In this document: in pieces, positions 2 through 31,535 of the stretch
How the letters are laid out: every line of letters begins with the position of its first letter
How positions within the stretch are numbered: position 1 is the stretch's first letter
IMG/VR virus record: IMGVR_UViG_3300031758_000088
Location: 1-58,443 of that record
DNA: 58,443 nt
DNA from: a virus
Lineage: Duplodnaviria > Caudoviricetes
Direction: 5' to 3' (one strand)
Notes under the pieces: generated by a model
Database searches by the model: none
The model's input: only the letters and a program-made list of their open reading frames with translations
Told to the model about the DNA's origin: nothing
Translations under genes and position numbers: made by a program

Positions 2-3000
2 GACCGCCGGGTCTCCGTGAGCTGCCAGAGGAGCCAGAGAGGCAATCAGTCCCTTGACCTTGGTGTCGATGGTGGTGACGCCGTTGCGCAGGACTGGGAT
101 GCCGCCGTTGCGATCACCCATACCCATGGCAGAGGCTGCGATACCCGCTCCAAGGTCAGACATCAGGGCCGCAGATTCTGCGCTCTGGTCTGCGAGGAGG
201 GCTGCACCGCCCATCTGCTCGGCCCTCTTCTTGTCGTAGACCGACATCTGGTTGTAGCGGTTGAGGTAACGCTGACGGAAGCTGGCTGCGCTCTGAGGAG
301 AGATGGCAGAAACCATGCGCTCAACAAAGCCTTTCTCTTGTCGTTTAAACGTTGTCTCACCGATACGGTCGCTGATGTTCGTTGGGATGTTTGGCAGGCT
401 GTATTTGGCCTTGCTGCTCATCCGGGTGAACTTCTCCATCGCCTTCTGTTTGTTGGCATAGGAGAGAGGCTCCACCTCTGCGATCATCAGCACCGATGAC
501 ACTGCGTCATCGTATTGGGCAGTCAACGCCTTGACTGGAATGGACTTTGCATCTTCGGACCGCAAGTGAATGTAAACGGGAACTTCACGGTAGCCGTCCG
601 CGTGCAGCGCCAGCATGCGGTGACGGCCTTCGTGCCCAGTAATTTTCCAGTCTCCATTTTTTTCCGACACAGATAGAAATGGAACTTGGTCGTAAGCCTT
701 CAGCCTCTCGACATCAAGCGGCTCCTGCTCTCGGCGCAGTCTGTCATACGTGTCGGACGATGCCGTGGCGTTAACAAATTCAATCGGGTTAACAAGTGCA
801 AGGTAACCCTTGGTCTTGTTCTCTGCGTCACTCTGGGTGTACATGGATTCATTCCACAACTTCTCAAAGCGATCATCAGAGTAGCGCACCTTCTTCAAGC
901 TGTAGCGCATGTCCTTGGACTCGCGGCTGAATTCACCAATGTTGCCCGTGACGGACTTAACCTGCTCTGCTTTAAACACAGCAAGGTTCTTGTTGCCGTA
1001 CTCCTGCACGTAGAACGAATCAAAGCCAAACGACTTCAATGCGTCCTGAACAATCGGGTCTTCAATCGTTGACCACAAACCATTTGAGATGTCCTTTTTA
1101 AAGGTGCTGGCTTTGGAGCTGGACTTTTTAAGGCGGACAACGGGGTCAGAGCCGCTCAGCTTTTGGTCGGCAATAATTTTCTCCGCAACCATGGCGGCGT
1201 GTTCGCTGTTCTCGTAGTCGAATGGCGTCTCTGCGCGAACCCACAAGGGGTAGATTCGCATCTCGTCAGTGGACTTGCCCTCATCCTTTGCGCGGTCCTC
1301 TGCAAACTGCTCAGCAAAGTCAGGATCGGGGCTGACGAAGATTGGCTTGCTCTCAAGGAACGTGGTGAACTCGGATGCGGAGCCGTGGTACATGACTTGC
1401 GGACGACCCTCGTCCATGATCTGGCTGCCACCAAAGAAGAGTTTGAACTCCTTGGTCGATGGAGGGGCCTTGTCATATGCGGCATCTTCCGCCTCTTTTG
1501 CGGAGGGGAAGCTGGTGCGGAGACTGAACTTCCCAGTCTTCACGGAATGCTTGCCAATCAAAACTGCGTAGTCTTGTGATGCGGCTTGGTTTTTGACCAA
1601 GTAGCCATCAAAGCCAGCCCTCTTAACATTGCGCTCCCAATTGCTTGCGCGTTCTGCGGACGAGTCGCCCTTGGCGTTCTTGATGATTTCAAGAGGGTCT
1701 GTTTTGGTGTCGTACAGATTTTTCAACCTGATGACGTGAGGAGTGCCGCCAACACCAGCCTCGGGCCGGACTCCCTTGCCGTTGTCAACGTAGAAATAAA
1801 TTCGGCCACGAATGTCCGAGTTTTCTTTTTCGTTTAAACGCTCACTCTCCATTCCGCGCAGACCGGTGCCGTGGAACTCGGAGATGAGTGTTGGGCGTCT
1901 CTCTTTGCTGAAGTGGACGCCGACAGCGCTTACCGATCCTCGCGTTGGCGTTCCGTATTCTTCTGTTGGCTGGCCGAAGTCAACCGCATTACCGCGCTCT
2001 CGACCTCCGAGGCGAGCAGCTCCTCTGGCGTCAATCCATTTGTCTCTGAGCGAGATTGCTTCTTCGGAAATGGCCTGAAGACGGCGACTCCCTTGCCCCC
2101 GAACATCTGCCCCGGCTTCTCCTTGAATCTTTCCACTGTCGCCATATCGTGTTTCCTTTAAGTAGTCGCTTCTTGTGTCGGGCCAAACGAGTGAACTGTG
2201 GAATGTCTCCGGGTCGGAGACACGAATCTTTCCATCGTAAGGGAATGATTCGACAGCATCGATGATGGCCTCATGGTATTGAGCATCGGTAAGGGTGTCA
2301 ACGTTGTCGTTGTATGCAGAGAAGTTGCCGTACAGCAAGGCCCCATCACGCAACGTATCACCATCCGCCTGTGGGACGTTCTGCGCAATGTGTTGACGCA
2401 ACTCGCTTAATTGATCCGCAGTCATGCCCTCTGGGACAACAACCTTCACAAACCCAGCCTGATCGCCAGAGCTCTTGTTGTCCTCATCAAAAGCAACCAT
2501 TGCCTTTTGGTCGAGCACATAACCAAGCACCCGGGCAAGCTCGTCAAGCTCTTGCTCTGTGGCCTCGTCTGGGGCTTGAACAATGATGTTGGGGTTGACC
2601 TCGCCCTCGTAGGTGCCCGTAGAGAACTCGTACTTGTAACCCTTGAGTTCGAGCTCAGAGAACACAGAGGACACCACCCTGTTGGCAACGGCCTTGGTTG
2701 CGTTTAGACGCTCCGAAGGCGTCATCTGCCTCCACTTCTCTGCCGAGATGTGGTCAGGGTTCGGCGCTACCTCTGCGACTACTCCTTTGCGGAGGGAGAA
2801 CTTTTCTCCATCGAGTCCACGAGCTTCATCAGAAACTGCGATCTCCGTTCCGGGCTCATCCCTGCCGTCAGGTTTTTGATCGAAGACCACACTTGGTCTT
2901 GCTCGTCCAGAACCCTGATTGGCTTGGGCGATGATTGCTTCTTCGTATCCGATGTCATCTGCTTTTCTCCCGCTCAGTTTTTCATAAAGGCGTTTCTCAT

Positions 3001-6000
3001 AGTACCAAAGGGCGGCCTGAATGTCAGCCAGACTGAGGTTGATTCCTTCTCCACGCAGCAAAGCTTGAGCCTTGCGTGCTGCGTCGTACATGAACTTTCT
3101 GTCGGTGGCTGTAAACGGAGCCTCCTCCAGCATCTCAAACTCGTTCTTGTAGATGGTGTTTGCCATCTTCTCAAGGTTGTGTTCAAACAGCAACTGCTCG
3201 TAGGCATCACCAGCCTTCTCTTCGGCAGCTTTAAACCAATTTTCTTTTGCGGCCTTTTTGGATGGCTCCTTCGCCCCCGCCAAATGCTCAAGCTCGGTTG
3301 TCCAACCGTACTCCTCATACTTGTTTCGCAAAGGAATGGTGGCGGCAGTAACTTCATCCCGAGTGGCATCGGGCTGTTCCATCATGTCTCGGAACTTGTT
3401 GATGGAGGCTTCTGTGGCCTTGGGGATGAGCAAGCCGCGCATGCGATTGATGGAACGAGTCCACCACAAATCCATGGTCAGGTAGCCCTCTGAGCCGGAA
3501 AGGTTGGCGTAGAACGCGCCAAGCTTAGGTCCAAAGTAAACCGCTGCCGCTGGCACAACAGTGTTGGCGAGATAGCTGCCATCCGTCTCTTCGCCCATTT
3601 CTCGTAAACGGGCGTTCATTTCTTTGACGGTAATTTCTTTGAGCAACACCTTCTCAAAGTCTTGACCATACTTGCTCAACAAGTCTTGGATGACTTTCAA
3701 GTTGTTTTGGAGCGCGGTTGGACGACGATTGCCCATGGCAACCAATCGCTTGCCGTTACGAAGCTTGCCATACAGCTTGATGGCGTTGTCGATGTTCTTT
3801 GCAACTCGCTCCCCGTTGGATGTAACGGCAACCAAAGCCGAGAACACCGAACGGGCATGCTTGTTTGTTCCAAGCTCCGGGAATCGCTTGGCAAGACGCT
3901 TAACAGCATTGGGGTAGTTGTTGGAATACCAACCCAAACCAGTGCCAGTCTTGGTTGATGTCTGCAACTGATGCGCCACCTCATCGGCGATGGCTTCAGC
4001 AATCCGAGTTGACTCGTCTTGAGTCAGTTTGTTGCGGTCCATTGCACCAAGCTGGTCAAGTGTCTGCTGGTTAAGCGCCTTGGCAATGTCTCGCACGTTG
4101 TTAAAGCGACCGCGAACCGCATCAGTGTTTAAACCAAGCTCTTGCTGCGAAACAGCAGTCTGCTTCTCCATCAACTTGCGGGTTGACATGGGTATGCCTT
4201 CGCCAGCAAGGCTGTACTTTGGCTTTTCTTTTTTCTCGGTAGAGGGTTTGGCCTTCGGTTCCTTTTCCTCTTCGGCCTTCTCTTCTGGCTTGGCTTTTGG
4301 CTCTTCCTTCGGAGCAGTCTTCTCTTTTGGCTTGCGGGACTTCAACTCACCACGCTCAACGCGCTGGAACACATCATCCGCAGACTCAAAGCCAGCACCA
4401 CGCAGGGCTTGACCAAAGTTCATGAAGAAGTTCTTCAGCTTCTTGAACAGCGCAGCAATCATGCCGGGAGGCGGTGTGGCTCCACGGTCGTAAGCACCAA
4501 ACGCATCAGCGATGGCTTCTTCAATGATCTCTTCTTGAGTCAGGCCAATCTTCTTGTAGGCATCCAGACGGCTCATCGTCACAGGCTTGCCGTCCACCTC
4601 GATCTCGGAGGTCTGGTCTTGGAGGTACTCCTTGATCCACCTCTTGTTGGCTTGCTCAGTCAGGGCCTTCCATTGCTGCGGGGTGAAGAACTCCAAGTCC
4701 TTCAGCGCATGCAGGGACTCATGGCGCATGGTTTGGATGGGGTTGGCCTCATCCAGAGAGACCTGAATCAGCTTGTCGAGGTAAGCACCACCCGCGTTGT
4801 TCTTGATCTGCTCAACAACGTTTACACCCACATCGCCAAGGTTGAACTTGGCCAGCATAGGCTTGAGCTTTGACTCAAGCTCCTGCGTGCGGGCAGCAAC
4901 TTCAGCTTGTTTAAACACCTGAGGATCGCGCTCGCGCAGCGTGGCTTCGGCCTGCTCCAGAGTTGGGAATACCCCAATTGGCTCAGCACCACGGTTAACG
5001 GTGAACTCGTTCTGCACGTCAGTGCGGGAACCGATGGGGGTAAAGCTCAAGGGGGCGGAGTAGCTGGCAATCTTGTCGTTGATGTCCTGAATCTTTAAGG
5101 CGGCCTCCTCCTCCTTTTGGGAGAGAAGGGCCTTGGCTTGGACGTACTCATCGGTGTCAGTCTGGCCCGTGGCCTCCATGACCTCAAGCTTACGCTGCTC
5201 ATCCTGAATGGACTTGCTGATCTTGTCAGACTCAGCCAAGAGACGGGCTTGCTCCTCCTGACGAATCTCGGTCAGGGACTGAATCTTCCTCTCCACCTCT
5301 TCTTGGGAGGCAACGGAGGTCAGAGGCTTGTCTGAACCTTCGGCAAAGATGCCAAACGACTCAGGTACGTCTCGGCGGGAGATTTCTCTGCGGGTGGCTG
5401 TGTAGCCACCGGGGAACTCTGTTGGGGGCTCTACGGGAGCTTTCTCTGGGGCTTCAGCAGAAGGCGCGACAGGCTCGGCTTGACCGAAGCCTTTGCGGAA
5501 CTCTTCCTTCTCCTTCTCAAAGGCATCCACAGCCTCAGGAGGCTTGGCCTCAGGACGCACCATCGCGGCAATGGGGGCAGCGCCCAGAGCGCCTGTGAGC
5601 GCTTCTTGGGTCGCAGCACCTGCCACGCCTTTAAACGTGTCTACGTCGTACCCCGCACGCTGCAATGCAACGTTCTCAGCGACCTTCTCTTGACCGCCTT
5701 GAGCAGCCTCTGGGACAGATTCCTTGAGAACTGATTCGCCAACCCTGCGAGCCATGCCGGGGGCTGCTCCTGCTCGGCCAGCCTTGGAGAACAACTCTTC
5801 AACACCCTTGGAGCCAGCAACATAACCAAGACCGGCACCGAGGGCGATCTGGTCAAAGTTTCCACCGAAGTACGACTGGGCTGCGTCAGCCTTTTGCTTG
5901 GCAACCTCTGGGTCTACGCCAGCCTCAATCTCGGCCTTCAGCACGCCGTCATAGATGGAGCCTTTGACAGCGCCAGCACCTTGGGCGGTACCAATAACCT

Positions 6001-6538
6001 TGGGGGCTTGTTGAGCAACGGACCGGATGGCAGCTTGAGAGCCAGCGGTTAAACGCATGGCAGCAGCCGCAGGGGCTGCAAACAAGGTGGGCAGGTACGG
6101 AACAAACGAGCCAATGGCCTGCGCGGCAGACTGGAGAGGAGCTTCAGCAACGTTTAAAGCACCAGCCTTGATCTCTTCCCATGTGCTGCCAGACTCTTCG
6201 GCAGCCTTCATCCGGGCGGCCTGACGCTGCATCTCAGCTTGACGCTCTGGGGTCATGCTCTGCTGAAGACTCTCCACGCCCTTGCCAAGCTTGGAGGAGA
6301 TGAAGTTGTCAGCGCCAGCCACATCGGTGAGCGCCTTGGCGCTTCCCGCAGCACCAACACCAAAGGACTTGGCTATGTCTCCAAGGGAGAACCCAGCGTC
6401 TTTGGCTGGGGCTGTTGGCATGACGTCCGACTCGATTGCAGAGCCGCCGTATTTCCGGGCCAGATCATCAAATTTTGATGCGCCGGGTTGAACTTGGCTT
6501 CCGCCGTATTTTTTTGCCAGCTCATCAAGGTTCATCAT
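2..6538 (-). CDS. Large polyvalent virion/ejection protein (>2,179 aa, C-terminus beyond window): zincin, HhH-glycosylase-like, unknown domain, two ADP-ribosyltransferase-like domains, ParB/Srx-like domain, LPD38-like region
   Basis: Not in ORF track. ATG at 6538 overlaps the upstream stop (ATGA); the N-terminus and the 4.9 kb-to-base-2 stretch translate by hand in one frame, and I saw no stop. Motifs: HESLH..EEAIADAF (~4720-4500); GWY..GPKLGAFYANL..TMDLWWTR..QAALWYYEKRLY (~3940-2985); VHFS..YFYV..GFDGY (~1920-1600); MYHGS..F..F..FVS..GFDS..VFKAEQVKS..N.G.F (~1393-920); GHEGRHR (617-637). Confidence 0.88.
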   Translation of the reverse strand, partial: MMNLDELAKKYGGSQVQPGASKFDDLARKYGGSAIESDVMPTAPAKDAGFSLGDIAKSFGVGAAGSAKALTDVAGADNFISSKLGKGVESLQQSMTPERQAEMQRQAARMKAAEESGSTWEEIKAGALNVAEAPLQSAAQAIGSFVPYLPTLFAAPAAAAMRLTAGSQAAIRSVAQQAPKVIGTAQGAGAVKGSIYDGVLKAEIEAGVDPEVAKQKADAAQSYFGGNFDQIALGAGLGYVAGSKGVEELFSKAGRAGAAPGMARRVGESVLKESVPEAAQGGQEKVAENVALQRAGYDVDTFKGVAGAATQEALTGALGAAPIAAMVRPEAKPPEAVDAFEKEKEEFRKGFGQAEPVAPSAEAPEKAPVEPPTEFPGGYTATRREISRRDVPESFGIFAEGSDKPLTSVASQEEVERKIQSLTEIRQEEQARLLAESDKISKSIQDEQRKLEVMEATGQTDTDEYVQAKALLSQKEEEAALKIQDINDKIASYSAPLSFTPIGSRTDVQNEFTVNRGAEPIGVFPTLEQAEATLRERDPQVFKQAEVAARTQELESKLKPMLAKFNLGDVGVNVVEQIKNNAGGAYLDKLIQVSLDEANPIQTMRHESLHALKDLEFFTPQQWKALTEQANKRWIKEYLQDQTSEIEVDGKPVTMSRLDAYKKIGLTQEEIIEEAIADAFGAYDRGATPPPGMIAALFKKLKNFFMNFGQALRGAGFESADDVFQRVERGELKSRKPKEKTAPKEEPKAKPEEKAEEEKEPKAKPSTEKKEKPKYSLAGEGIPMSTRKLMEKQTAVSQQELGLNTDAVRGRFNNVRDIAKALNQQTLDQLGAMDRNKLTQDESTRIAEAIADEVAHQLQTSTKTGTGLGWYSNNYPNAVKRLAKRFPELGTNKHARSVFSALVAVTSNGERVAKNIDNAIKLYGKLRNGKRLVAMGNRRPTALQNNLKVIQDLLSKYGQDFEKVLLKEITVKEMNARLREMGEETDGSYLANTVVPAAAVYFGPKLGAFYANLSGSEGYLTMDLWWTRSINRMRGLLIPKATEASINKFRDMMEQPDATRDEVTAATIPLRNKYEEYGWTTELEHLAGAKEPSKKAAKENWFKAAEEKAGDAYEQLLFEHNLEKMANTIYKNEFEMLEEAPFTATDRKFMYDAARKAQALLRGEGINLSLADIQAALWYYEKRLYEKLSGRKADDIGYEEAIIAQANQGSGRARPSVVFDQKPDGRDEPGTEIAVSDEARGLDGEKFSLRKGVVAEVAPNPDHISAEKWRQMTPSERLNATKAVANRVVSSVFSELELKGYKYEFSTGTYEGEVNPNIIVQAPDEATEQELDELARVLGYVLDQKAMVAFDEDNKSSGDQAGFVKVVVPEGMTADQLSELRQHIAQNVPQADGDTLRDGALLYGNFSAYNDNVDTLTDAQYHEAIIDAVESFPYDGKIRVSDPETFHSSLVWPDTRSDYLKETRYGDSGKIQGEAGADVRGQGSRRLQAISEEAISLRDKWIDARGAARLGGRERGNAVDFGQPTEEYGTPTRGSVSAVGVHFSKERRPTLISEFHGTGLRGMESERLNEKENSDIRGRIYFYVDNGKGVRPEAGVGGTPHVIRLKNLYDTKTDPLEIIKNAKGDSSAERASNWERNVKRAGFDGYLVKNQAASQDYAVLIGKHSVKTGKFSLRTSFPSAKEAEDAAYDKAPPSTKEFKLFFGGSQIMDEGRPQVMYHGSASEFTTFLESKPIFVSPDPDFAEQFAEDRAKDEGKSTDEMRIYPLWVRAETPFDYENSEHAAMVAEKIIADQKLSGSDPVVRLKKSSSKASTFKKDISNGLWSTIEDPIVQDALKSFGFDSFYVQEYGNKNLAVFKAEQVKSVTGNIGEFSRESKDMRYSLKKVRYSDDRFEKLWNESMYTQSDAENKTKGYLALVNPIEFVNATASSDTYDRLRREQEPLDVERLKAYDQVPFLSVSEKNGDWKITGHEGRHRMLALHADGYREVPVYIHLRSEDAKSIPVKALTAQYDDAVSSVLMIAEVEPLSYANKQKAMEKFTRMSSKAKYSLPNIPTNISDRIGETTFKRQEKGFVERMVSAISPQSAASFRQRYLNRYNQMSVYDKKRAEQMGGAALLADQSAESAALMSDLGAGIAASAMGMGDRNGGIPVLRNGVTTIDTKVKGLIASLAPLAAHGDPAV
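1930..2145 (-). CDS. Putative overprinted small protein (71 aa) nested in +1 frame of polyvalent gene
   Basis: AAGGA SD 8 nt before ATG; G/C-ending codons typical of the genome, while the host frame becomes an R/G-rich linker with atypical codons. Confidence 0.5.
   Translation of the reverse strand: MATVERFKEKPGQMFGGKGVAVFRPFPKKQSRSETNGLTPEELLASEVESAVMRLTSASQQKNTERQREDR
2779..2958 (-). CDS. Putative overprinted small protein (59 aa, MTSDTKKQSSPKPIRVLDEQDQVWSSIKNL...) nested in +1 frame of polyvalent gene
   Basis: GGGAGA SD 7 nt before ATG; typical codon usage; lies in the linker after the HhH-like domain. Confidence 0.5.
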   Translation of the reverse strand: MTSDTKKQSSPKPIRVLDEQDQVWSSIKNLTAGMSPERRSQFLMKLVDSMEKSSPSAKE

Positions 6539-21010: not shown

Positions 21011-24000
21011 TTAAACTTCGTAGTGTCCTGAGACGTAGACAGTCGCCGCCGTGTCAATGGCAAGCGAAGTTAGCGCACCAGCAGATGCAAATGTTGCCAT
21101 AGATGCTGTCGTGGCGTTTACATCAACAAACGCCGTCAACTGAGACGTGTATGTCAAGTTGTTCGCTCCAACCGCTAAAAAGTTAAAGCCGCTAGCCGTA
21201 TTTACTGACGTAAACGGTAGACCTGAAATCTTCATGTTTCCAGTTCCCGTGTGGGCAGACCAAGTAATCGCCACAGAGAAATAAACCCTGTTGCCAATCT
21301 TCGTGTATCTGCCAACTTGAGACGAATATGTCCCCGTCCCAGCCGTTGTCGTGCCAATAATCGTTGGAGTAAACGTCCCCTCCTCGTAGTCATCCAGCGC
21401 ATTTGCTGCGGCGGTGTCAGTACCAAACAGAATACCTGTGCTGGCTCGGATTTGACCAGACACATCTAGCTTTACGGCAGGAGAATTCGTCCCAATACCC
21501 AAATTCCCACTCGCATCCAGCGTCATCGCCTGAGTGAAGGTGATAGCGTTACCTGCTGTGCCGGAGGGGGCGGTGTACCAGATATGTTGACCGTTCAACT
21601 GCGTGTATTCGGTTGCAAAGCTGGAAGCGATGTATTTGCGTGCAGAGCCGTCAAAGAAGTAGTTGTACCCAAGGTACGCCGCTGCACTGGTTGCCCAGAA
21701 TGATGCGTTGCGGTTTTGCAGGGCTGTACTTGTAGACCCCCAAGCACTCGGAGTAACTCCCAAGCCGAGGTTGCCGGAGGAGTCAATGCGCATGCGTTCT
21801 ACGCCTGTCGCACTGGTGCTGTCTGATGTCGCAAAGGTCAGGCCAACCAAATTTCCAGCAGAATTCTCAATCACGCTGACAATCTTTGCCTTCGCGCCTG
21901 TACCGTTGGCAGAGGGATCGTTGGCGTAGAAGTCAATTTCACCGATGACGTTCCCGGTCGTCAGCGCCGTGTTGGAGTTTTCAAGCGTCAAGACCGCGCC
22001 AGTAGAGCCAGAGCCGCTTGGGTTAAGCAATGAGCGTGGCGAACTCGTCCCAATACCGAGGTTGCCGGAGGCGTCAAGGCGCATGCGCTCTGTGTCAGAA
22101 ACACCAAACGCCAACGGACGTGCTCCGTTAAAGAACTGTGTTGTGCCGTTGTCTTCAATGTAACCTGTACCAATAGAGACTGTTCCGCGAGTGCTACCAA
22201 CCTCCAGATGTGGGCCGTGAGTAACGACAGTTGGAATGACGCCAATACCCACGTTGCCGGAGGAGTCGATACGCATCCGTTCGGTGGGTGTTGCCGAGTT
22301 TGTTCCGTTGCCGAAGATAAGGTTGCCGCTACCATCGTTGTAGATTCGGCTGTCAAGGCCACCAGAGGGCACAGAGAGCAACAACTCAGGCGCAGCAGCC
22401 GTTACCAATAAGCGACCTTGGGCTTGGATGTCACCAACCACGTCAAGCGCGTAAGTAGGTGTAGTGATCCCAATACCCACGTTGCCTGCGCTGGTGATGC
22501 GGAGCTTCTCGGTTGCTGCTGCACCTGCTGCCGCTGTCCAGAAAGCCAACGCTCCGCTTGTCGCGGCAGATGCTGTGTCGGCAACAGACCGAATGCGGCT
22601 TACTGCTTGCGCCCCAACACCGCTGGTGTCGTTTGAGTAAAAGTCCAATGTTGCAACAATATCGCCAGCAGCCCATGACACCTTACTTTGTGTGTCCCGA
22701 ATGTTGAGGGTTGGAGTAGTGCCAGCCACATCAAGGTTGCCAACAGGCGAACTCGTCCCAATACCCACGTTGCCTGCGCTCGTGATGCGCATGGCTTCGG
22801 CGCTGGTGGGTGAAAACGTAAAGTAAGAACTGCCTGCGGTCGAAATAAAGTCTGTTCGGTTGGCGCTAGCTGCTCCATCCCCATAGTTGCGGATGTAAAA
22901 GTTATTACCCTGCCCTTGCAGATAAAGAGACGCAATCGAATTCGCTCCGGTGTTTTGGTTGCTTACTCGCAAACTTACTTCACTGTCAGCACTTTCCACT
23001 ACATCCAGCCTATAAGCGGGCGAACTCGTCCCAATGCCCACGTTACCGCCCGTGATGCGCATGGCTTCCGTAAACGTGGAGGAGCCGTAAGCCGCGTTTG
23101 TGTTGCTACCAAACCGTAACGGCCCAAAAGCAGAAAACCTAACCCCGGAACTGCTGCTAGGGTCATAATCAATAAACCCGTAACTGCCTGTATTGCTAAA
23201 CATCAAGCCAGTAGTTGCTCCAGAACCACCAGACGAATGTACAGAATAACCAGCTTTGGTTGTAGATACAGAAGTATTTACGGAGGCGTTAAGTGAAGTA
23301 CTCGTCCCAATACCCACGTCACCAGCAAAATAGTTCTGCGCTGTCCCGCTGGCGTAGATGTTCCACTTGTTCGTGCCGGAGGAGACAAGGCTGGTGATGC
23401 CGTAGTTGTTTGTGCCTTGGGTCTGGTCTTCAACGACCAAACCATACAAATTAGTGATGGTGCTGCCAGCGCCTTTTGTTGCATTAGCAGCTCTAATTGC
23501 GGCAACTGTCCCGGCAGTAAACGACGAAGCCGCTGTTGCTGGCCCAGACCAAATACCATTGATCTGATTAGTCCCATTTCCCACAGGAGCAGCAGCAATC
23601 CCGTACTGTATATTTCCAGTGGAAATTGTATTTGTGAGGTAAAGACCCACGTTGCTTGTGGCAGCACCACCCACCCCCATATACCCGTTCACTTGCACAG
23701 TGTCGGTAGAGGCGTCGCCGAGAACTGCATTGCCCGTGATGTTTAAACCACCAGCGCCAGCGTCTGTTGTGGTGCCGATGGACAAGCCGCCAGCGGATGA
23801 GATTCGCATGCGTTCTGCCCATGTTGCTGATCCAGTTCGCTGCCCGATCACAATGGCAGGTGCAAACTGACCACCAACGCTTACAGAGCCGATATAAGCG
23901 TGTTGCGTAACTCCAGTCGATGAAGTCGGCGACAGTTGAAGCATCGCCATCGTGCCGCTGGTGTTACTTGAGTTTCTGACAAATAAAGTAACGGCATCAT

Positions 24001-25078
24001 CAATTGGAGATGTAGTGCTTCCAGAGCCTGTATAAACAGTTGTGTTGCTTCCGTAAATGTTGAACAAAGACAAAGGCGAACTCGTCCCAACACCCAAATT
24101 CGTCCCATCAAACGTCAGCGCACTCCCCGTGGTCAGGACTTTGGAGCCGTTGAGGTAGGCCACGCCGTTGGCTGTGCCGCCGGACATGACTGGGTTGGCA
24201 GTGAAAGACACCACACCAGTGGAATCTGCAATCTGCATCCCGGCTGTGCCGTCCTTGGCCTTGATGTTGGTCACTTCAAGGTTGGTTAGGTCAAGAGAGC
24301 CGGTCAAAACGATGTTGCCGCCCACAGTGGCATTACCCGCCAAGAACAGGTTACGGGGCCGTGTAGCACCCGATGCGCCAATGTCGTAGGTGTTATCCGT
24401 GAAGATCAGGTTGGATGTGACGGTGCCGTTTACGGTGATGTTGTCCGCCGCTGCGTCACCCAGAGTCACTGCGCCCGAGAAGGTGGCTGCCGCTGCCGCG
24501 AGGGTCCCGGTCAGGGTGGGCGAAGCCGACAGGACGTTGTTGCCTGTACCGGTGTTTGTCACACTCACCACTTCTTTGCTGGAGTTCAGCGCCAGAGCGG
24601 TCGATGCAGTCAGGCCGGACAGCGTGGTCGTGCCGGAGATGGTGACGTTGGTGAACGAGCCGCCACCGCCAGTGTTGCTGATCTTGATGAAGTCAGAGCC
24701 GTTCCATGCAACAACAGCAGATTCGCCCTTGATGATGGTCACACCGGTTGTTGGGCCTGCGCCACGGAACACGATGGACTGTGTGCCGCCCGAGGCGTTG
24801 ATGACGGTGTAAATCTTGGACCGCGCAGGAGCCGTGATGTTGCGAGTCACTGTGCCCGATGCCGGGTTCCACAGGATGATGGCCTGACGCGCTTCGTTGG
24901 CTACGCCGTCCGTGGTGGTCAGCGTGACATCCGCATCGGTCGTCAGGGAGGTTGTGCCCGAGATGGCTGCGTCGATCAACGACGTTCCGGAGTCGTTCCA
25001 TATGTCACCCCAGTTTCCTGACAATTCGCCAGTTACTGGGAGCACGAGGCCGAGAAGAGAGGTGTATGAGCTTGCCAT
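21011..25078 (-). CDS. Tail fibre with about ten E(R/A)MRIxSxGNVGIGTxxP modules
   Basis: Repeated module separated by variable inserts; C-terminal LDDYEEGTFTP..GRYTKIGNRV domain; likely start MASSYTSLLG. Confidence 0.9.
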   Translation of the reverse strand: MASSYTSLLGLVLPVTGELSGNWGDIWNDSGTSLIDAAISGTTSLTTDADVTLTTTDGVANEARQAIILWNPASGTVTRNITAPARSKIYTVINASGGTQSIVFRGAGPTTGVTIIKGESAVVAWNGSDFIKISNTGGGGSFTNVTISGTTTLSGLTASTALALNSSKEVVSVTNTGTGNNVLSASPTLTGTLAAAAATFSGAVTLGDAAADNITVNGTVTSNLIFTDNTYDIGASGATRPRNLFLAGNATVGGNIVLTGSLDLTNLEVTNIKAKDGTAGMQIADSTGVVSFTANPVMSGGTANGVAYLNGSKVLTTGSALTFDGTNLGVGTSSPLSLFNIYGSNTTVYTGSGSTTSPIDDAVTLFVRNSSNTSGTMAMLQLSPTSSTGVTQHAYIGSVSVGGQFAPAIVIGQRTGSATWAERMRISSAGGLSIGTTTDAGAGGLNITGNAVLGDASTDTVQVNGYMGVGGAATSNVGLYLTNTISTGNIQYGIAAAPVGNGTNQINGIWSGPATAASSFTAGTVAAIRAANATKGAGSTITNLYGLVVEDQTQGTNNYGITSLVSSGTNKWNIYASGTAQNYFAGDVGIGTSTSLNASVNTSVSTTKAGYSVHSSGGSGATTGLMFSNTGSYGFIDYDPSSSSGVRFSAFGPLRFGSNTNAAYGSSTFTEAMRITGGNVGIGTSSPAYRLDVVESADSEVSLRVSNQNTGANSIASLYLQGQGNNFYIRNYGDGAASANRTDFISTAGSSYFTFSPTSAEAMRITSAGNVGIGTSSPVGNLDVAGTTPTLNIRDTQSKVSWAAGDIVATLDFYSNDTSGVGAQAVSRIRSVADTASAATSGALAFWTAAAGAAATEKLRITSAGNVGIGITTPTYALDVVGDIQAQGRLLVTAAAPELLLSVPSGGLDSRIYNDGSGNLIFGNGTNSATPTERMRIDSSGNVGIGVIPTVVTHGPHLEVGSTRGTVSIGTGYIEDNGTTQFFNGARPLAFGVSDTERMRLDASGNLGIGTSSPRSLLNPSGSGSTGAVLTLENSNTALTTGNVIGEIDFYANDPSANGTGAKAKIVSVIENSAGNLVGLTFATSDSTSATGVERMRIDSSGNLGLGVTPSAWGSTSTALQNRNASFWATSAAAYLGYNYFFDGSARKYIASSFATEYTQLNGQHIWYTAPSGTAGNAITFTQAMTLDASGNLGIGTNSPAVKLDVSGQIRASTGILFGTDTAAANALDDYEEGTFTPTIIGTTTAGTGTYSSQVGRYTKIGNRVYFSVAITWSAHTGTGNMKISGLPFTSVNTASGFNFLAVGANNLTYTSQLTAFVDVNATTASMATFASAGALTSLAIDTAATVYVSGHYEV

Positions 25079-25086
25079 GATTTTCC

Positions 25087-26055
25087 TTACGCAGCGATCT
25101 GCTGCCAATCCGGAGATTGCGTTGTCCCGACCTGCGCCCAGCCGGGTGATTGAGCGTCATTCACATTTTGCCAGTTTGGAGACTGGGTGTCACTGATTGT
25201 TGTCCAGTTGGCTGTTTGGGTGTCGCCAATCACGCCCCAGTCGGCGTCTTGGATGTCGTTGATCAGGCCCCAGACGTTCACCGAGCCCACGTAGCCCACA
25301 GCGTACACGCCTGTGACCAGCACTGTTGCACCACCAACCACCGCTACGCTGCCAATCTGGCCTTCTGCCTGCACCCCAGTGACGGGGACAATGATGGACA
25401 GGAGAATCGTGACGGTGCCGATCTCCCCGGTGGCCTCTACGCCCGTGACGTCAATGACGCCCGTGCCGGTTACCGTGACTGTGCCGATCTGACCCGTGGC
25501 CTGAACGCCAGACACCACCGCAGTGGCTCCGGCGGCAACCGTAACTGTGCCGACAGCTCCAGTGGCTTCTACGCCCGTAACCGGGACGTTGGCGTCAGCA
25601 CTGACCGTGGCTGTGCCGATTTGGCCTGTGGCTTGAACTCCAGTGGGGAATACGTTGGCGGTGCCCGTGACGGTGACTGTGCCTGTCTGACCGGTAGCTT
25701 GGACGCCTGTGACCTGCACAACCGCGCTGGCTGCAACGGTAACGGTGCCGACTTCGCCCGTGGCCTGTACGCCCGTGGGGAATACATTGGCTGTGCCGGT
25801 TACCGTGACGGTTCCGACTTCTCCGGTAGCCTGTACCCCGGTCGGGAAGACGTTGGCCGAAGCAACAACCGAAACAGTGCCGACTGCGCCGGTTGCCTGA
25901 ACGCCCGTAACAGAAACTGTCGCCCCGGCAGTAACCGTGACAGAGCCAACCGCACCAGTGGCGGTTACGTCTGTGTGACCAACACCCCAGCCTTGGGAGC
26001 CCCAGCCTACGCCGGAAGCACCCCATCCTTCAAAGGCTACGATTGCATTGGCCAC
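25087..26055 (-). CDS. Tail protein with ~20-aa tandem repeats (VTGVQATGxVGTVTV)
   Basis: About 12 repeats plus C-terminal W-x-x-I-x-D-x-Q repeats. Confidence 0.8.
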   Translation of the reverse strand: MANAIVAFEGWGASGVGWGSQGWGVGHTDVTATGAVGSVTVTAGATVSVTGVQATGAVGTVSVVASANVFPTGVQATGEVGTVTVTGTANVFPTGVQATGEVGTVTVAASAVVQVTGVQATGQTGTVTVTGTANVFPTGVQATGQIGTATVSADANVPVTGVEATGAVGTVTVAAGATAVVSGVQATGQIGTVTVTGTGVIDVTGVEATGEIGTVTILLSIIVPVTGVQAEGQIGSVAVVGGATVLVTGVYAVGYVGSVNVWGLINDIQDADWGVIGDTQTANWTTISDTQSPNWQNVNDAQSPGWAQVGTTQSPDWQQIAA

Positions 26056-26065
26056 CTACGCACCG

Positions 26066-26482
26066 TCAAGCAATCCGCACGATTGCCGAGGAGGCGTCGT
26101 TGGTTGGGAACTGGACCGTAAAGTCACCGGCAGTGGACGTTTTGTCAGCGCCGAAGTCCAGAACCGCAATGGCCTTGTTGGACTTGCTGCTGTTGTACAT
26201 CAACGCGCCGCGAGCAGTAATGGTCGCAGTTGACCATGTGGTGTCCGAGAAGTCCACGTAGGCGGTCGTGCCGGACAGGGAGACTGTTGCCCCGGTCAGC
26301 GTGTTGCCACCTGCGGTGTAGCCAGTGCCCACCACCTCGTCGGAAGTGGAATAGGCTGTTGTGGCCGCGCTCAAAGTGGCTGCACTGGTGTACAGGGCCA
26401 ACTTGATGACGTCCGTGTCGAGATCGTGCTCGCCCAGCAGAATCTGCTGTTTGAACGAGGAACAAAGAGCTTGTGTGATCAT
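26066..26482 (-). CDS. Virion structural protein
   Basis: SFK..L..H..D..KLALYT..GY.AGG..L..DF.D..W..TARGA..Y..DFG.DK. Confidence 0.75.
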   Translation of the reverse strand: MITQALCSSFKQQILLGEHDLDTDVIKLALYTSAATLSAATTAYSTSDEVVGTGYTAGGNTLTGATVSLSGTTAYVDFSDTTWSTATITARGALMYNSSKSNKAIAVLDFGADKTSTAGDFTVQFPTNDASSAIVRIA

Positions 26483-26486
26483 GTGT

Positions 26487-27239
26487 TTATCCTACGTAAG
26501 AAAATTTTAGACCCTTAACGGAAGGGTACTCACCGCCGCAAACCCGTTGGATTGATCTTTGAGAAATTCCGGTTTGTTTGGCAGCCTCAGTTCTGCAAGA
26601 GTACACAACTCCTGTTGTGTCGCATTGAATTTTTCTCTTTTTGGATTCGGCCATTCTGGAAATAATTTCCTGCCCATAACGCCGACCCATGCACGCAGCA
26701 CTCAGCTTTGCCTTGGATTCTTCCGACCATACTCTATTTCTGGCGGAGTCGCCAACAGCCTTCTTGCGTTTTTCTTCGTCTATCAGCAATCGGGCTTCCG
26801 CTAACTGTTTTGCAGCAACTGCTTTTTGCTCTGGGTTTTTTGCAAACCACTCCAGCTTTTGCTGCCTATTTCTTTCCCGCTGCTCAGCAGTTCGTTTTTT
26901 CCCAATGTTACTTAAGCGAATCTGCTCTTTCGTGGCGTCATCGTACTTTCGGCCAAAAGTAACCTCGCCCCCGTTGGTCTGGTTGTATGCTGGCGCAAGC
27001 TGCAAGATGATGTCTTTTTCCAATTGCGCCAAGACTTCTTTTTTGACTGCGCTGGCATACTCCTCCACACAAAATGTGGACGCTCCGTATTTTGCAATTG
27101 CTCTGTGAAAGTGTGTTTTTGGCGAACGAGAGTAAGTCACATGATTTGCCCAGCGCCGTGCAACACCAACCGTAGTAAGGCCAACATACTGCTTGCCCGT
27201 TTCGGTGTTTGTTGCTACATAAATGACGCCGTGCTTCAC
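26487..27239 (-). mobile_element. Free-standing GIY-YIG homing endonuclease with NUMOD3-like repeats and C-terminal HTH
   Basis: GVIY..TN..TGKQYVGLT..RW..H; LEK..I..YNQTNGG; more AT-rich than flanks. Confidence 0.88.
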
Positions 27240-27250
27240 GTAGCCTCCTG

Positions 27251-27904
27251 TTAATTGACTTGGATGCGCACTTGCCCATCCCGGTACGCGTCTCCGCGCT
27301 GTTTGCCGTCACCCAAGTTCTTGAGCAGTGCAATCGACTGAAGATACATATCTTGGTACAGCTTGACCATCTGCTCTTCACCCTTCATGTACCGGATTGC
27401 TTCGACCAAAGCACCGTTGAGCAGCGCGGAGTCAAAGTTCTCACCCAGCCACGTATCACCCGCAGTCACGATGGACTCCGGCACATAGTAGTAATGAAGT
27501 TCTACATTGTAAGCAGCATTTGGTGTTGGGCCAAGGATGAAGCTCAGCTCGTTCACATCGTCCGAGCGTGGCCCGAAGATGGCGTAGTGCTTTGGCTTGC
27601 CTGTGGTCGCCGGATTGGGGTACGCCTGACGGATGAAGTTGACATCCTTGTTCAGCAAGAACTCATACGCACCACCGGCCACCGGGTACACGGCCAGCGA
27701 GTACACCGACAGGAAGTCCGAGGGGGCTTGCAAATACTGGTTTGACGCAGTGATCGACCCGGTGACGTTCTTGCGCAAGTTGGCAAGCTGCACCGTGTTG
27801 TAGATGCGCTGCTCCGCCTGCTTCGTGAAGAGCGCGTACTCCTCCTCTGTGAACTCGTTTTCACAGATTCGAGCGATGTTTTCTTGAAGCTCGACGTAGT
27901 TCAT
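27251..27904 (-). CDS. Head-tail adaptor protein
   Basis: AEQRIY..L..G.P.HYA..GPTP..Y.VELHYY..LL.GALVEA. Confidence 0.75.
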   Translation of the reverse strand: MNYVELQENIARICENEFTEEEYALFTKQAEQRIYNTVQLANLRKNVTGSITASNQYLQAPSDFLSVYSLAVYPVAGGAYEFLLNKDVNFIRQAYPNPATTGKPKHYAIFGPRSDDVNELSFILGPTPNAAYNVELHYYYVPESIVTAGDTWLGENFDSALLNGALVEAIRYMKGEEQMVKLYQDMYLQSIALLKNLGDGKQRGDAYRDGQVRIQVN

Positions 27905-27907
27905 GTC

Positions 27908-28177
27908 TTATGCCATTGGGCCTCGGGCCATGGTGCCTTTGGTGGCTGCGCCAGTACCACGGATTTTGATGCCGCTGGTCTTGGTGGGCTTGCCGTCAGG
28001 CTTGTTGCTGAACGTGCCAACGCTCATGTCCACGGTGTCCACACGGCTGTGGTTTGGCTCTTTGCCGGGGTTGGTTTGGGCCTTCACAACCTTGCCCGAC
28101 ATGGTGTGGGGCTTGGCATAAACGCTGGCGGAGCCAACTTCTTTGCCCATCATCTTTTTGCTGAATGTAGCCATCAT
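27908..28177 (-). CDS. Small basic protein
   Basis: K-rich; C-terminal IRGTGAATKG. Confidence 0.65.
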   Translation of the reverse strand: MMATFSKKMMGKEVGSASVYAKPHTMSGKVVKAQTNPGKEPNHSRVDTVDMSVGTFSNKPDGKPTKTSGIKIRGTGAATKGTMARGPMA

Positions 28178-28184
28178 GGGCTCC

Positions 28185-28574
28185 TTATGTCGTTTGAACT
28201 GTAACTGTACCAACAAACCCTGCTGCCACCAAGTCGTTTGGCGTCAGCGCGTCATCAAACAAGCGTGAACCGCCTACGGGTGCCCAGCCCCACTGGATGT
28301 CCCGAGACCCCCCAGAGACATTCCCATTGACGTTCAAGCCAGACACAAAATACGTTGTGTCGCGCCGTGAGTTACGCAGGGCCTGTGGGTCATCCACCGG
28401 GAACGTGCCGAGCATCAACTGAGGATGATCCGGGTCCCAGCACTCTGGACACACCAGCAACTCATACCTGCGCTGCTTGATGATCTCCGTGCGCAACTTC
28501 TTAAGCTGGTACTGCTGACCACACCTGTCGCACTCGGCAATCGCTATGCGGCCTGAAGCAAACCGGTTGGGCAT
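28185..28574 (-). CDS. Zinc-finger protein (CDRC..CPEC)
   Basis: Likely start MPNRFASG adjoining upstream stop; two CxxC. Confidence 0.7.
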   Translation of the reverse strand: MPNRFASGRIAIAECDRCGQQYQLKKLRTEIIKQRRYELLVCPECWDPDHPQLMLGTFPVDDPQALRNSRRDTTYFVSGLNVNGNVSGGSRDIQWGWAPVGGSRLFDDALTPNDLVAAGFVGTVTVQTT

Positions 28575-29269
28575 CAGTACCCCCCGATGAACATTCGACG
28601 AGGCACGAAGCGTGCGGCAGCCTTCTCTCGGTCTTCTGTAGAGGCAAGCTCCCAAGCCTCGTCGTACTGCTGCTTGAGGATCGGCAATCTGTCCATGGAG
28701 TTTGGCAGCTTCAGCGCCAAGTGATAAGCCAATCCAGCCGTCATAGCTTCGTAGAAGCGGAATGGCATGTCCATGGTGTTTACACCTGTGCCTGCGTCTT
28801 GAATTCGACGAAGACGCCAGTACACGAAGGTGTAAGGCTGTGTGTCGTCCGGGACGGGCCACACAGTGATTCTTGGTGTGTCCAAGCGCTCGATCCAAAC
28901 TTGGATTGGGCGAGCTTGGGTCAACTTGTTGGGGATTGTGGCGTAGGTTGAGACACTGATCCGGGTAATGGTCAGGTCCGCCTGAGTGGACACACTTCCC
29001 GCGCCAGTGCGGATGACGTGCTCCAAAAGGTCTACCGTGTCAGCCGGAAGGTTATAGGTTGCAGTTCCAGCCACGAGAGGGATTGAGCCCTGCTCGTAGG
29101 TGAACATGTTTAAACCCTTGTTGGCCCACTGGGAGAACATCAGGTTCAAAGATCGACTGGCCGTGCGCAAGTCATAACCGGTACGCAACTCACCTCCGGC
29201 GCGTTCAAACGCTTCCTCTACGATTTCCGTGAGGTCCATGTTGAAAGCTGTGGTGCCGGAAGTGGTCAT
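28574..29269 (-). CDS. Head completion/adaptor protein (tail tubular A-like)
   Basis: IVEEAFER.G..A.RSLNLM..W.N.G..YNLP..WPVPD. Confidence 0.75.
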   Translation of the reverse strand: MTTSGTTAFNMDLTEIVEEAFERAGGELRTGYDLRTASRSLNLMFSQWANKGLNMFTYEQGSIPLVAGTATYNLPADTVDLLEHVIRTGAGSVSTQADLTITRISVSTYATIPNKLTQARPIQVWIERLDTPRITVWPVPDDTQPYTFVYWRLRRIQDAGTGVNTMDMPFRFYEAMTAGLAYHLALKLPNSMDRLPILKQQYDEAWELASTEDREKAAARFVPRRMFIGGY

Positions 29270-29272
29270 GGT

Positions 29273-29518
29273 TTACTTTGCTGTTTTGGCTGATTGGCGG
29301 AACGCTTGCGCAGTTGGAGCGCCAGCAGAACCGGGCTTGCGCATTTTCTCACCAGAACCAGCGGCAATGCGCTTTTTCTTGGCGTGAATGTTGGCGTACA
29401 AACCTACCGGCCCACCTTCAGCGTACTGCGTGAAGTCGGTGTCATCCCGGCGAGCTTTACGCTTGCCTTTGGGCATCTTGGAGGGGGCAATGGCCCCCAT
29501 TCCGCGACTGGCTAACAT
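29273..29518 (-). CDS. Small basic protein
   Basis: YAEGG; GLYANIHAKKKRI..GEKMRKPG. Confidence 0.65.
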   Translation of the reverse strand: MLASRGMGAIAPSKMPKGKRKARRDDTDFTQYAEGGPVGLYANIHAKKKRIAAGSGEKMRKPGSAGAPTAQAFRQSAKTAK

Positions 29519-29519
29519 G

Positions 29520-29747
29520 TCAGCACATCCCGCCACCGGCCATTTTGATCATCTTGCCCTTGGTGTGGGCTTTGGTGATGCAACCGTCGGCGCGAGTAAC
29601 ACTGCCACCCTTGGCATACTTCTTTGGCTTTTTGGGCTTGGGGGCGGAGCCACCATCGATGTCCTGTGGAGGAGGGAGGCCGGAGTCTTCTGTGTAAACA
29701 CCATCTTCAAGTCCACGAGGTTTTCTCTTCATCATCATGTCGTTCAT
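29520..29747 (-). CDS. Small basic protein
   Basis: YAKGGSVTRADG..TKG..MAGGG. Confidence 0.65.
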   Translation of the reverse strand: MNDMMMKRKPRGLEDGVYTEDSGLPPPQDIDGGSAPKPKKPKKYAKGGSVTRADGCITKAHTKGKMIKMAGGGMC

Positions 29748-29756
29748 GTCAGCTCC

Positions 29757-30830
29757 TTAGCAAATTTTGCAACGTGTTTTACCGCGAGTGGCGATGCCAT
29801 CTGCGCGTTTTGAGGCTGGTGATGTTGATCCACCAGAAGACATCTTCATTGACTTGACCTTGCCGCCCTTCTTGAAGGCAAAGTCCTTACCGCCCAGCTC
29901 TTTGCGGACAGCACCGGATGCGGCTTCGTAGCCGGGAGCTTTGGGGTCAAGGCCATAGTTCTTGGCGTTCTCGTCCAACATCTCGTCACGGCGCTTGGAA
30001 GCACGGTCTGCGCGTCGCTTTGCAATCGCTCCAGCCTTGTCATAGGCAAGGCGTTTGGTTGGCGATGGAAGAGCTTTCTGGGCTGGCCCCGGCAACGCTG
30101 GTTGGTCGTAGGTTTTAAGCTTGGAAGTCTTGCCTGCCGCAAGCTTTTTGGCGGCAGCAGACAAAGTTTTCAGGCCAGCACCCGGCAACATTGCATTCTC
30201 CAGACCTTTTTGGGTCTGCTCTTCGGTTGGCTTGATGGAGTCGATCTCTCGCTCAAGCTGCTGCTTCTTGCTCATTTCCTTGCCGCGACCCTCATTCGAG
30301 TAGTTCGGGTTGGAGGCTGGAGCAACTCTGGGTGAGGATGCGCGATCTTCGGCAGATGCGCCACCTGTGCGGCGGTAGCTTTGCTCTTGCATGGCAGGAG
30401 CTTTTGAGGCGGCAGGTTTTGTTGGTGCAGCCACGCTAACAGACGGTTTGCCGCCCGGTCTTGGTTGCTGAGCAACAACTGGCTTGGTGCGGGGGCCTTG
30501 ATACATCTCGGCAACGCTTGCATCACCTGACGACTGGCGTTTGCCAGCCTCGGCTCCTGCCGCCAACATGCTGGACATATCTTCGGATACTGGCTTTGCG
30601 GACTCTCGGATTACGGGAGTTGGAGTGCGATCCTCTACTGGAGCCGGAGACTGTACAGACTTGCCACGGCCAGCGCCAAAACGACGATACGCTTCAGAGC
30701 CCTCGTCATCGATGTTGCCCATGCGTAGGCGCTCAAAGAAGCCAACCTTGTCATCTTTCGAGGCCTCCAGACCGCGTTCTTTGTCAGACATTCCGCCCTC
30801 TTGAAAGCGTTTGATCTTCTTTGTCGCCAT
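29757..30830 (-). CDS. Low-complexity basic protein
   Basis: 357 aa; FQEGG, FKKGG, MSSGG; C-terminal RADGIATRGKT. Confidence 0.7.
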   Translation of the reverse strand: MATKKIKRFQEGGMSDKERGLEASKDDKVGFFERLRMGNIDDEGSEAYRRFGAGRGKSVQSPAPVEDRTPTPVIRESAKPVSEDMSSMLAAGAEAGKRQSSGDASVAEMYQGPRTKPVVAQQPRPGGKPSVSVAAPTKPAASKAPAMQEQSYRRTGGASAEDRASSPRVAPASNPNYSNEGRGKEMSKKQQLEREIDSIKPTEEQTQKGLENAMLPGAGLKTLSAAAKKLAAGKTSKLKTYDQPALPGPAQKALPSPTKRLAYDKAGAIAKRRADRASKRRDEMLDENAKNYGLDPKAPGYEAASGAVRKELGGKDFAFKKGGKVKSMKMSSGGSTSPASKRADGIATRGKTRCKIC

Positions 30831-30840
30831 GATTCACTCC

Positions 30841-31299
30841 TTAGCAGGCTTTGCCACCACGGGCCATCTTGACCATGGTGCCTTTGGTTTTGCCTTTGGA
30901 GGCAATACCGTTCATGCTGGGGGCTGCGGTTTTGACTGCGCCCATCTTGGTAGTGCCCACCGAGCCACCGGCCTTCAGGCCTTTGTGAGCCTTGGAAGCT
31001 GGCATTGAGGCATGCTTAGCCAGAGACATACCGCCTTTGGCGAAGGGCTTGCCCTTGGCCTCGGCCATCTCATGCTTAACCATGGACTTGGGAGCACCGG
31101 CCTTCTTCATAAAACCAATCTCTTTCTTCACCATTGCTTTGGACTCTTTCATATCGCCACCTTTTGAAAATTTGCGGCCCTTGTCCGCGTTGGAGAACTC
31201 TTTGCCCACGGACTGTGGGACACCTGTTTTCTTGGCAAAGGCTGGATTATTCGCCACTGCCGCCATGAAATTATGCTGCTTCTTGCTAGTTGAGGGCAC
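30841..31299 (-). CDS. Small K/M-rich basic protein
   Basis: MPSTSKKQHNFM; four xxxGG motifs; GIASKGKTKG. Confidence 0.7.
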   Translation of the reverse strand: MPSTSKKQHNFMAAVANNPAFAKKTGVPQSVGKEFSNADKGRKFSKGGDMKESKAMVKKEIGFMKKAGAPKSMVKHEMAEAKGKPFAKGGMSLAKHASMPASKAHKGLKAGGSVGTTKMGAVKTAAPSMNGIASKGKTKGTMVKMARGGKAC

Positions 31300-31534: not shown

Positions 31535-31535
31535 G

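Follow-up and report, generated by a model that had tools for sequence, protein, structure and literature searches.

The nested gene and its surroundings

The window analysed here is a contig of 58,443 nucleotides (nt) from a tailed phage (IMG/VR record IMGVR_UViG_3300031758_000088), rated 93% complete. Its minus strand carries genes for a terminase, a portal protein, a virion structural protein and tail fibres, followed by several very large open reading frames (ORFs). The last of these, downstream of all the genes just named, encodes a giant phage polyvalent protein, P0001; 2179 amino acids (aa) of the protein are visible, and its C-terminus lies past the contig end. This report is concerned with a small ORF, P0002, which is located wholly within the P0001 ORF, on the same strand and in another frame, and overlaps host residues 1465-1537. 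In the host frame, these residues form an R/G-rich linker between two domains, here called X and Y (Table 1). From the comparisons described below, we regard P0002 as very probably a selected coding frame, i.e., a genuine gene for a small protein that lies within a giant late gene, in its +1 frame. Its product may serve as the partner subunit of the X-Y module; guided by a predicted complex, we assign a probability of roughly 0.55 to this reading.

Table 1. Coordinates of the features discussed in the text (nt of the window; residue numbers of P0001 unless stated otherwise).
Feature	Position	Strand	Remarks
Nested gene P0002, 71 codons + TAA	1930..2145	-	ATG ORF, +1 frame of the giant gene
Shine-Dalgarno-like AAGGAA	2153..2158	-	7 nt 5' of the nested ATG (2143-2145)
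Near-invariant motif FKEKPGQMFGGKGVAVFRPF, nested codons 7-26	2068..2127	-	from alignments
Predicted amphipathic helix, nested codons ~40-60	1966..2028	-	from structure prediction
Domain X (aa 1265-1465)	2144..2746	-	no known family; second half ferredoxin-like
Host-frame R/G-rich linker between X and Y (aa 1465-1537)	1930..2145	-	same DNA as P0002
Domain Y (aa 1526-1669)	1532..1963	-	no known family; alpha/beta in the model
Second nested gene P0003, 59 aa	2779..2958	-	+1 frame, over the linker before domain X; conserved ATG
Host gene, giant phage polyvalent protein P0001	2..6538	-	last of the very large ORFs
K/R-F/Y-S-L motifs	4208-4219, 2792-2803, 1520-1531, 896-907, 395-406	-	five in P0001

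The original prediction, made from the letters of the window, had pointed to an AAGGA Shine-Dalgarno (SD) motif followed by an ATG, and had quoted the +1 codons TTC AAG GAG AAG CCG GGG CAG ATG TTC. Both are found in the sequence, the SD motif as AAGGAA seven bases ahead of the nested ATG. A switch of the GC-rich third codon position from the host to the nested frame had also been claimed, and its absence named as a reason to discard the gene. The switch is present. While the GC content of the first, second and third codon positions (GC1, GC2 and GC3) of the host frame is 0.60/0.42/0.62 gene-wide, it amounts to 0.71/0.57/0.44 across the P0002 ORF, where the nested frame has a GC3 of 0.71. A host GC3 this low occurs in only 2.1% of the 72-codon windows, a GC1-GC3 gap this large in 0.6%, and the two most extreme non-overlapping 72-codon windows of the gene with respect to this gap, 2971-2756 and 2152-1937, are the two nested ORFs.

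The first 26 residues of the P0002 protein form a near-invariant N-terminal motif. A variable spacer rich in S, P and T separates this motif from an amphipathic helix (~40-60), and the tail is again variable. When it is modelled alone, residues 1-39 appear as a low-confidence coil, followed by a helix at 40-70 with a predicted local distance difference test (pLDDT) score of ~85 for residues 41-60.

The length of the open frame is ordinary. From stop to stop it spans 75 codons, and the same gene holds four longer +1 stretches of 135, 108, 85 and 82 codons. A chance open stretch without function in a GC-rich gene therefore had to be considered, and a 109-aa ATG ORF in the +1 frame at 1156-1485 (minus strand), which overlaps the start of the ART-PolyVal domain, served as negative control. 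It is not conserved, shows stops in two of the related genes (L024 and L026) and is a chance ORF. For P0002, all comparative tests oppose this explanation. They were moreover carried out on genes that are not near-clonal: approximately 55% of the host third positions differ in the flanks, and L010 and L014, for instance, differ at 294 of 1644 aligned positions. The probability of a chance ORF is hence close to nil.

Selection on the nested frame

The comparison drew on nine other giant genes that have the same X-Y region, seven on viral contigs (L009, L010, L011, L012, L024, L026 and L030; contigs L002-L004 are identical with L009, L011 and L010) and two on metagenome contigs (L013 and L014). 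In all ten giant-gene loci, the window included, the P0002 ORF is intact, begins at the same ATG and encodes 67-73 aa. It lies exactly at the border of X and Y in each of them and nowhere else. Frequent +1 stops in close homologues had been proposed as a finding that would speak against the gene; none of the nine homologous giant genes carries a stop inside the ORF. An AGGA/GGGA core is found at equal spacing to the nested ATG in 11 out of 11 loci, counting a free-standing copy on contig L015 that is described below. The host-frame residues over this core vary (KE, EG, KG) while the core stays.

These observations bear on the idea that the +1 frame is reached by ribosomal frameshifting, which would yield a truncated X product with an alternative C-terminus and would involve no independent initiation. 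Suggestive of this are a G-run early in the overlap and the +1 offset of the frame relative to the host gene. In addition, in a 113-aa database protein, P0012, the nested-frame sequence continues in one reading frame into the start of domain Y. P0012 either owes its form to an indel in the assembly or is a natural split form, the downstream half of the giant gene then being headed by the nested start; since it stems from a single 607-nt contig, an assembly indel is equally likely, and P0012 is not used as evidence here. The fixed spacing of ATG and ribosome site in all 11 loci argues against frameshifting, as does a nested-frame stop four codons ahead of the ATG in 7 of the 10 giant genes; no stable RNA structure was found, and no canonical slippery site was seen by eye. 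The conserved ribosome site, the ATG and the upstream stops thus favour independent initiation, and we consider frameshifting very improbable.

In an alignment of five of the genes (~1,230 codons), the longest +1 stretches that are free of stops in every sequence are the P0002 ORF (71 columns) and the P0003 ORF (60 columns), whereas the +2 frame reaches 33 columns at most. Codon identity at identical residues exceeds the expectation 1.25-1.62-fold at 2209-2029 and 1.27-1.72-fold at 3025-2845. In the other printed windows this ratio is 0.66-1.20, the sparsely filled alignment end excepted, apart from a smaller rise of 1.30-1.36 at 3205-3169 (minus strand) within the domain upstream of P0003; no conserved alternative ORF was seen at 3169-3205.

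The pattern of variation points in the same direction. Codon-position diversity was taken as the mean pairwise diversity at host positions 1/2/3 among ten sequences. It is 0.24/0.17/0.55 in the upstream flank and 0.30/0.23/0.56 in the downstream flank, compared with 0.28/0.16/0.20 over nested codons 1-26 and 0.31/0.21/0.38 over nested codons 27-71. Since host position 1 is nested position 3, the variation in nested codons 1-26 follows the nested frame. Host third-position diversity is at or below that of the first position in 45 of 1064 evaluated 30-codon windows (1306 possible), and all 45 lie inside 2950-2774 or 2164-1967. The two readings share the burden: the nested motif FKEKPGQMFGGKGVAVFRPF is near-invariant where host residues vary, and a host stretch, AISEEAI-LRD-WIDARGAAR, is near-invariant where the nested spacer varies.

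The second region singled out by these measures belongs to P0003. Its ORF is open in six of the eight loci that reach that far; in L010 and L013, which lack it, another domain stands upstream. At host positions 1/2/3, the diversity is 0.31/0.26/0.28 across this ORF and 0.21/0.19/0.54 and 0.25/0.18/0.58 in its flanks; three database proteins match P0003. As an ORF with like signatures thus lies at the preceding domain border, the nested design recurs. This is in good agreement with the earlier suggestion of a repeated arrangement of domain plus nested partner, to which the complex model described below adds a predicted placement of P0002 on both flanking domains.

Conservation at the nucleotide level, with the open frame as a by-product, would be another way to account for the low variation. 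The DNA might act as a recombination joint for domain modules, as a regulatory site or as an RNA element. Several facts fit such a role. The domain content of the giant genes shifts at linkers, in that L010 and L013 have another domain ahead of X, and the domains that follow Y vary as well; a 35-nt block recurs letter for letter in three other contigs; and pieces of both linker regions are adjacent in L015. At strain level, in contigs of one run, 4 of 266 nt differ in a piece on 1902-2167, compared with 52 of 385 nt in a piece on 2138-2522 that has a similar depth. By our own mapping, three of the four differences in the first piece are at third positions of the nested frame; this is a small sample. 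A nucleotide element or a recent recombination would, however, lower the diversity of all three codon positions, while the observed order is reversed, with nested position 3 highest and nested position 1 lowest. Moreover, the copies retain frame, start and length at 57-62% nucleotide identity to L015, and only in the nested frame does the ratio of non-synonymous to synonymous differences (pN/pS, see below) lie below 1 throughout. With respect to an RNA element, no Rfam family was found (the only row is far below threshold), and the 301-nt region folds worse than 99 of 100 shuffled sequences (z = +2.24). A nucleotide-level element is therefore improbable, and selection on a coding frame remains our explanation for the conservation.

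The contigs of four DNA runs entered the comparison; contigs cannot reveal transcript ends or expression. Three RNA runs each contain 0.04 of the sampled words.

Free-standing copy and protein family

Metagenome contig L015 provides the copy outside a giant gene. Here, a 146-aa ORF at 5001-5441 shares 70% identity with P0002 over its first 66 residues and is preceded by the same AAAGGAAC-N6-ATG. No giant ORF extends over this stretch, and the host-frame reading is stopped after 26 codons. Comparison of L015 with each of the nested copies gives a pN/pS of 0.32-0.69 for the nested frame, as against 0.79-1.16 for the host-frame reading (ten copies). The C-terminal 80 residues of the ORF duplicate the gene immediately upstream, and genes for VRR-NUC, ADP-ribosylglycohydrolase and DUF3293 proteins are among the neighbours. 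The surrounding stretch, 4653-6330, is a mosaic of short modules, in which the 80-aa domain is tandemly duplicated and occurs once alone and once behind the P0002-like module. At 5480-5560 there is a fragment that resembles the region of P0003. The next gene, 5665-6330, opens with L-D-P-T-N-L-P-F-D-P; the same motif stands after the N-terminal module in the family members P0017, P0023 and P0026.

P0002 belongs to a family of small proteins. Eight close database proteins of 63-74 aa have 48-90% identity to it, and a profile search returned 17 representatives at an E value of at most 1e-3 (8 of these at E<=1e-10), most of them ~70 aa long. The N-terminal 35-45 residues also occur on other C-termini, namely in P0022 (182 aa) and in P0023 and P0024 (94 aa). 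One cluster member of the family is found on 87 contigs, and one bears the source label Polynucleobacter sp.

Beyond these relatives, searches for P0002 and its locus remained negative. P0002 matched no Pfam family at E<=0.1 and no PHROGs family at E<=0.01, and the protein atlas gave no usable lead (the stored model has a pLDDT of 0.47). Among cultured phages, neither a DNA search with 1,201 nt nor a tblastn search with P0002 and the divergent member P0043 produced a match. A scan of bacterial species genomes with P0043 and alignment A2 detected no relative, and a scan of viral contigs with P0043, P0023 and a second motif pattern returned nothing related; the three matches of the motif pattern in these contigs are primase-like genes.

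Two phages with versions of the host domains came to light. Phage zth2-2 (L036, OL791268.1), the closest record with a name, has a distant X-Y pair with 31% identity. A 96-aa +1 ORF in it (318-608), with an AAGGAG and an ATG on the equivalent Tyr-Gly codons, was not counted, as its hhalign E value of 0.23 is not significant. In Limnohabitans phage DC33 (L037, PQ492659.1; 39 kb), the coding sequence 22242-31619 includes a domain similar to Y (41% identity), with a different domain ahead of it. The taxonomy line of this entry reads Inoviridae, a label that looks odd for such a genome.

Predicted complex of P0002 with domains X and Y

A model of the host segment X-linker-Y (420 aa) shows an alpha/beta domain X, a poorly defined linker with one long helix and an alpha/beta domain Y. 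In the linker, low-confidence coil (204-212 of the segment) precedes a helix (213-245), the part of the linker that is conserved in the host frame; a stretch of low confidence at 241-255 then leads into coil. For the second half of X, VIA wide gave a best Z of 8.3 (root-mean-square deviation 2.9, 80 aligned residues) with a ferredoxin-like structure, which is a common arrangement only. Since the 420-residue model exceeds the size advised for VIA wide, a fold may have been missed. PDB searched by sequence and Foldseek (E<=0.001) yielded no match for X-linker-Y, and a Pfam scan of all ten members at E<=5 gave one stray match in a single member.

Prediction of a complex between X-linker-Y and P0002 returned a score of 0.80 (0.82, 0.79 and 0.80 in the separate runs), whereas the best of three controls scored 0.00. 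The inputs were alignments of 10 rows for X-linker-Y and 14 rows for P0002. Among solved complexes, 58 of 80 reach this score mark, compared with 2 of 110 mismatched pairs; as our own alignments served as input, this calibration applies here only approximately. The runs share at least 90% of their contacts, with a partner pLDDT of at least 68. In the model, the interface of P0002 comprises residues 1-9, 11-12, 14-26, 38-57 and 59-60, which are the conserved segments of the protein, and leaves out the spacer and the tail. Residues 1-9 would pair with positions 173-177 of the host segment, and 14-26 would lie against positions 53-58 and 80-90 of X; residues 7-26 account for the bulk of the predicted X interface. 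The helix (38-57, 59-60) is placed on Y (278-395), and the host-frame linker is left untouched. The model thus supports binding of P0002 to X-Y, and the coil predicted for the N-terminal part of P0002 alone fits a motif that folds on its partner.

A nested gene may, of course, be real and its product act independently of X-Y. The protein would then be a small effector, e.g., in host takeover or anti-defence, that docks on a protein of the bacterial host, and the linker DNA would merely offer a place that saves space and rides on late transcription. The evidence for coding selection applies equally to this proposal. It is in accordance with the N-terminal module on varied C-termini, with L015, where neither X nor Y is nearby, and with the disorder predicted for the most conserved part of the protein alone, which resembles a short docking motif. 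The strict position at the X/Y border in ten of ten giant genes argues for a tie to these domains instead, and so does the complex model, with its contrast to the controls and an interface made of the conserved segments; a host target that could be named is lacking. We consider the independent effector possible, though rather unlikely.

Several points weigh against P0002 as partner subunit of X-Y. The interaction is a matter of model confidence, with both alignments being shallow, and no known fold or family in Pfam, PHROGs, PDB, Foldseek, VIA wide or the protein atlas assigns a function to X, Y or P0002. We infer translation from its own start from the sequence, and the comparison sequences all come from uncultured metagenome contigs. 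L015 is the sole free-standing context that was verified. No X or Y domain occurs within 10.2 kb of this contig, and the N-terminal module is fused there to an unrelated duplicated domain. Together with the varied C-termini of other family members, this suggests that the module may work with other partners or alone. As L015 also carries the fragment reminiscent of P0003, it may be a rearranged remnant of a giant gene rather than an independent ancestral gene.

The giant host protein

P0001 carries a Pfam ART-PolyVal domain at aa 1709-1870 (E = 1.5e-15; 58.6 bits at a cut-off of 31.2) and, because of this match, counts among the phage polyvalent proteins as defined in PMC5512222. It is giant and multidomain, contains a domain typical of the class, and comprises at least five units divided by linkers. 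Motifs of the form [KR][FY]SL stand at aa 774, 1246, 1670, 1878 and 2045, each at an apparent domain border, and look like protease processing sites. The border occupied by P0002 had been described as the one lacking such a motif, and indeed none of the five falls there. In relatives of P0001, K-[FYL]-S-[LI] is seen at matching places. As regards a metallopeptidase domain for self-processing, a HESLH motif is found at aa 606 (4709-4723, minus strand), but the Pfam scan gave no match to a peptidase family.

Comparison with known systems

Nested out-of-frame genes are known in phages. Rz1 of phage lambda is embedded in Rz, on the same strand, in the +1 frame and with its own start. The products of Rz and Rz1 are described as working in a complex (PMC5295617). 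This pair is the closest analogue of the situation reported here, the likeness being a small +1 gene inside a larger one; for P0002 and its host, the complex is a prediction. Rz1 has a lipoprotein signal and a lipobox cysteine, whereas P0002 has no cysteine, no signal peptide and no hydrophobic N-terminus, so that it is not a spanin. The host gene, too, is of another kind, since it encodes a polyvalent virion or effector protein instead of a lysis protein. The ORF lies over an inter-domain linker, there are two such ORFs per host gene, and there is no sequence similarity to Rz/Rz1.

Overlapping (overprinted) viral genes, e.g., in phiX174, have been reviewed in PMC8227390 and PMC7017920. In common with these, two proteins are encoded by one stretch of DNA, synonymous change in the host frame is suppressed, and one of the readings is compositionally odd and probably disordered. 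Unlike in these, the odd, disordered-looking reading belongs to the long host gene. Since free-standing relatives of the short ORF exist as well, the order of origin may be the reverse of the one usually assumed, in which the short ORF comes last. The term overprinted, used for P0002 in the original prediction, therefore holds in part: the nested gene is supported by its open frame, synonymous constraint, reversal of codon positions and free-standing homologue, while the small frame may not be the newcomer. We lean towards the host linker as the younger reading, with the small gene engulfed in a gene fusion. In favour of this are the GC3 of the nested frame, which at 0.71 is genome-like or higher, compared with 0.44 in the host frame; the R/G-rich, poorly ordered linker; and the occurrence of the family outside giant genes.

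With the polyvalent proteins of Iyer et al. 2017 (PMC5512222), P0001 shares the ART-PolyVal domain, the many domains and the place among late virion genes. That paper proposes processing into units, with which the repeated K[FY]SL linkers of P0001 may be in keeping. In the main text of that paper, the word overlapping does not occur and nested is used only for a hairpin fold; out-of-frame genes in polyvalent genes are not described in this main text. A full-text literature search likewise listed no description of nested out-of-frame genes inside polyvalent-protein genes.

Proposed mechanism and biological meaning

On the reading of P0002 as partner subunit of X-Y, the following scheme may be drawn. 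Ribosomes would start at the internal AAGGAA-N7-ATG on the mRNA of the giant gene and produce the 71-residue protein, while the same DNA, read in the host frame, would give the flexible R/G-rich linker that joins X and Y. The N-terminal motif of P0002 would add strands to the sheets of X and its helix would pack on Y, so that both domains are strapped together. P0002 might thus help to assemble or hold this module of P0001, which belongs to a class of proteins believed to be packaged and then delivered into host cells. Both proteins would stem from the same message, and so be synthesised at the same time and place.

A more general scheme is conceivable, though we hold it to be doubtful. Giant polyvalent genes might grow by swallowing small partner genes: X, a small partner and Y would be fused into one frame, the DNA of the partner becoming the linker, while translation of the partner would go on from its own start. 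As straps or safety catches, the two nested proteins would then keep injected effector modules packaged or inactive until delivery.

The finding introduces a new, unannotated family of small proteins with at least 17 representative clusters. Two nested genes lie at domain borders of one polyvalent protein, and the predicted binding partners of P0002 are precisely the domains joined by its DNA. Gene callers skip same-strand genes nested in long ORFs, so such small proteins are missing from phage annotation. The arrangement also lends itself to genetic work, as the start of P0002 can be abolished by one substitution that leaves the sequence of P0001 unchanged. If the proposed partnership is true, synthesis of a small subunit would be tied to that of its giant partner in time and place, and a route would be given by which multidomain conflict proteins may be assembled from separate genes. 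In the broader case that giant genes grow by swallowing their partners, the linkers of phage and plasmid polyvalent genes would hold a general, overlooked layer of small proteins.

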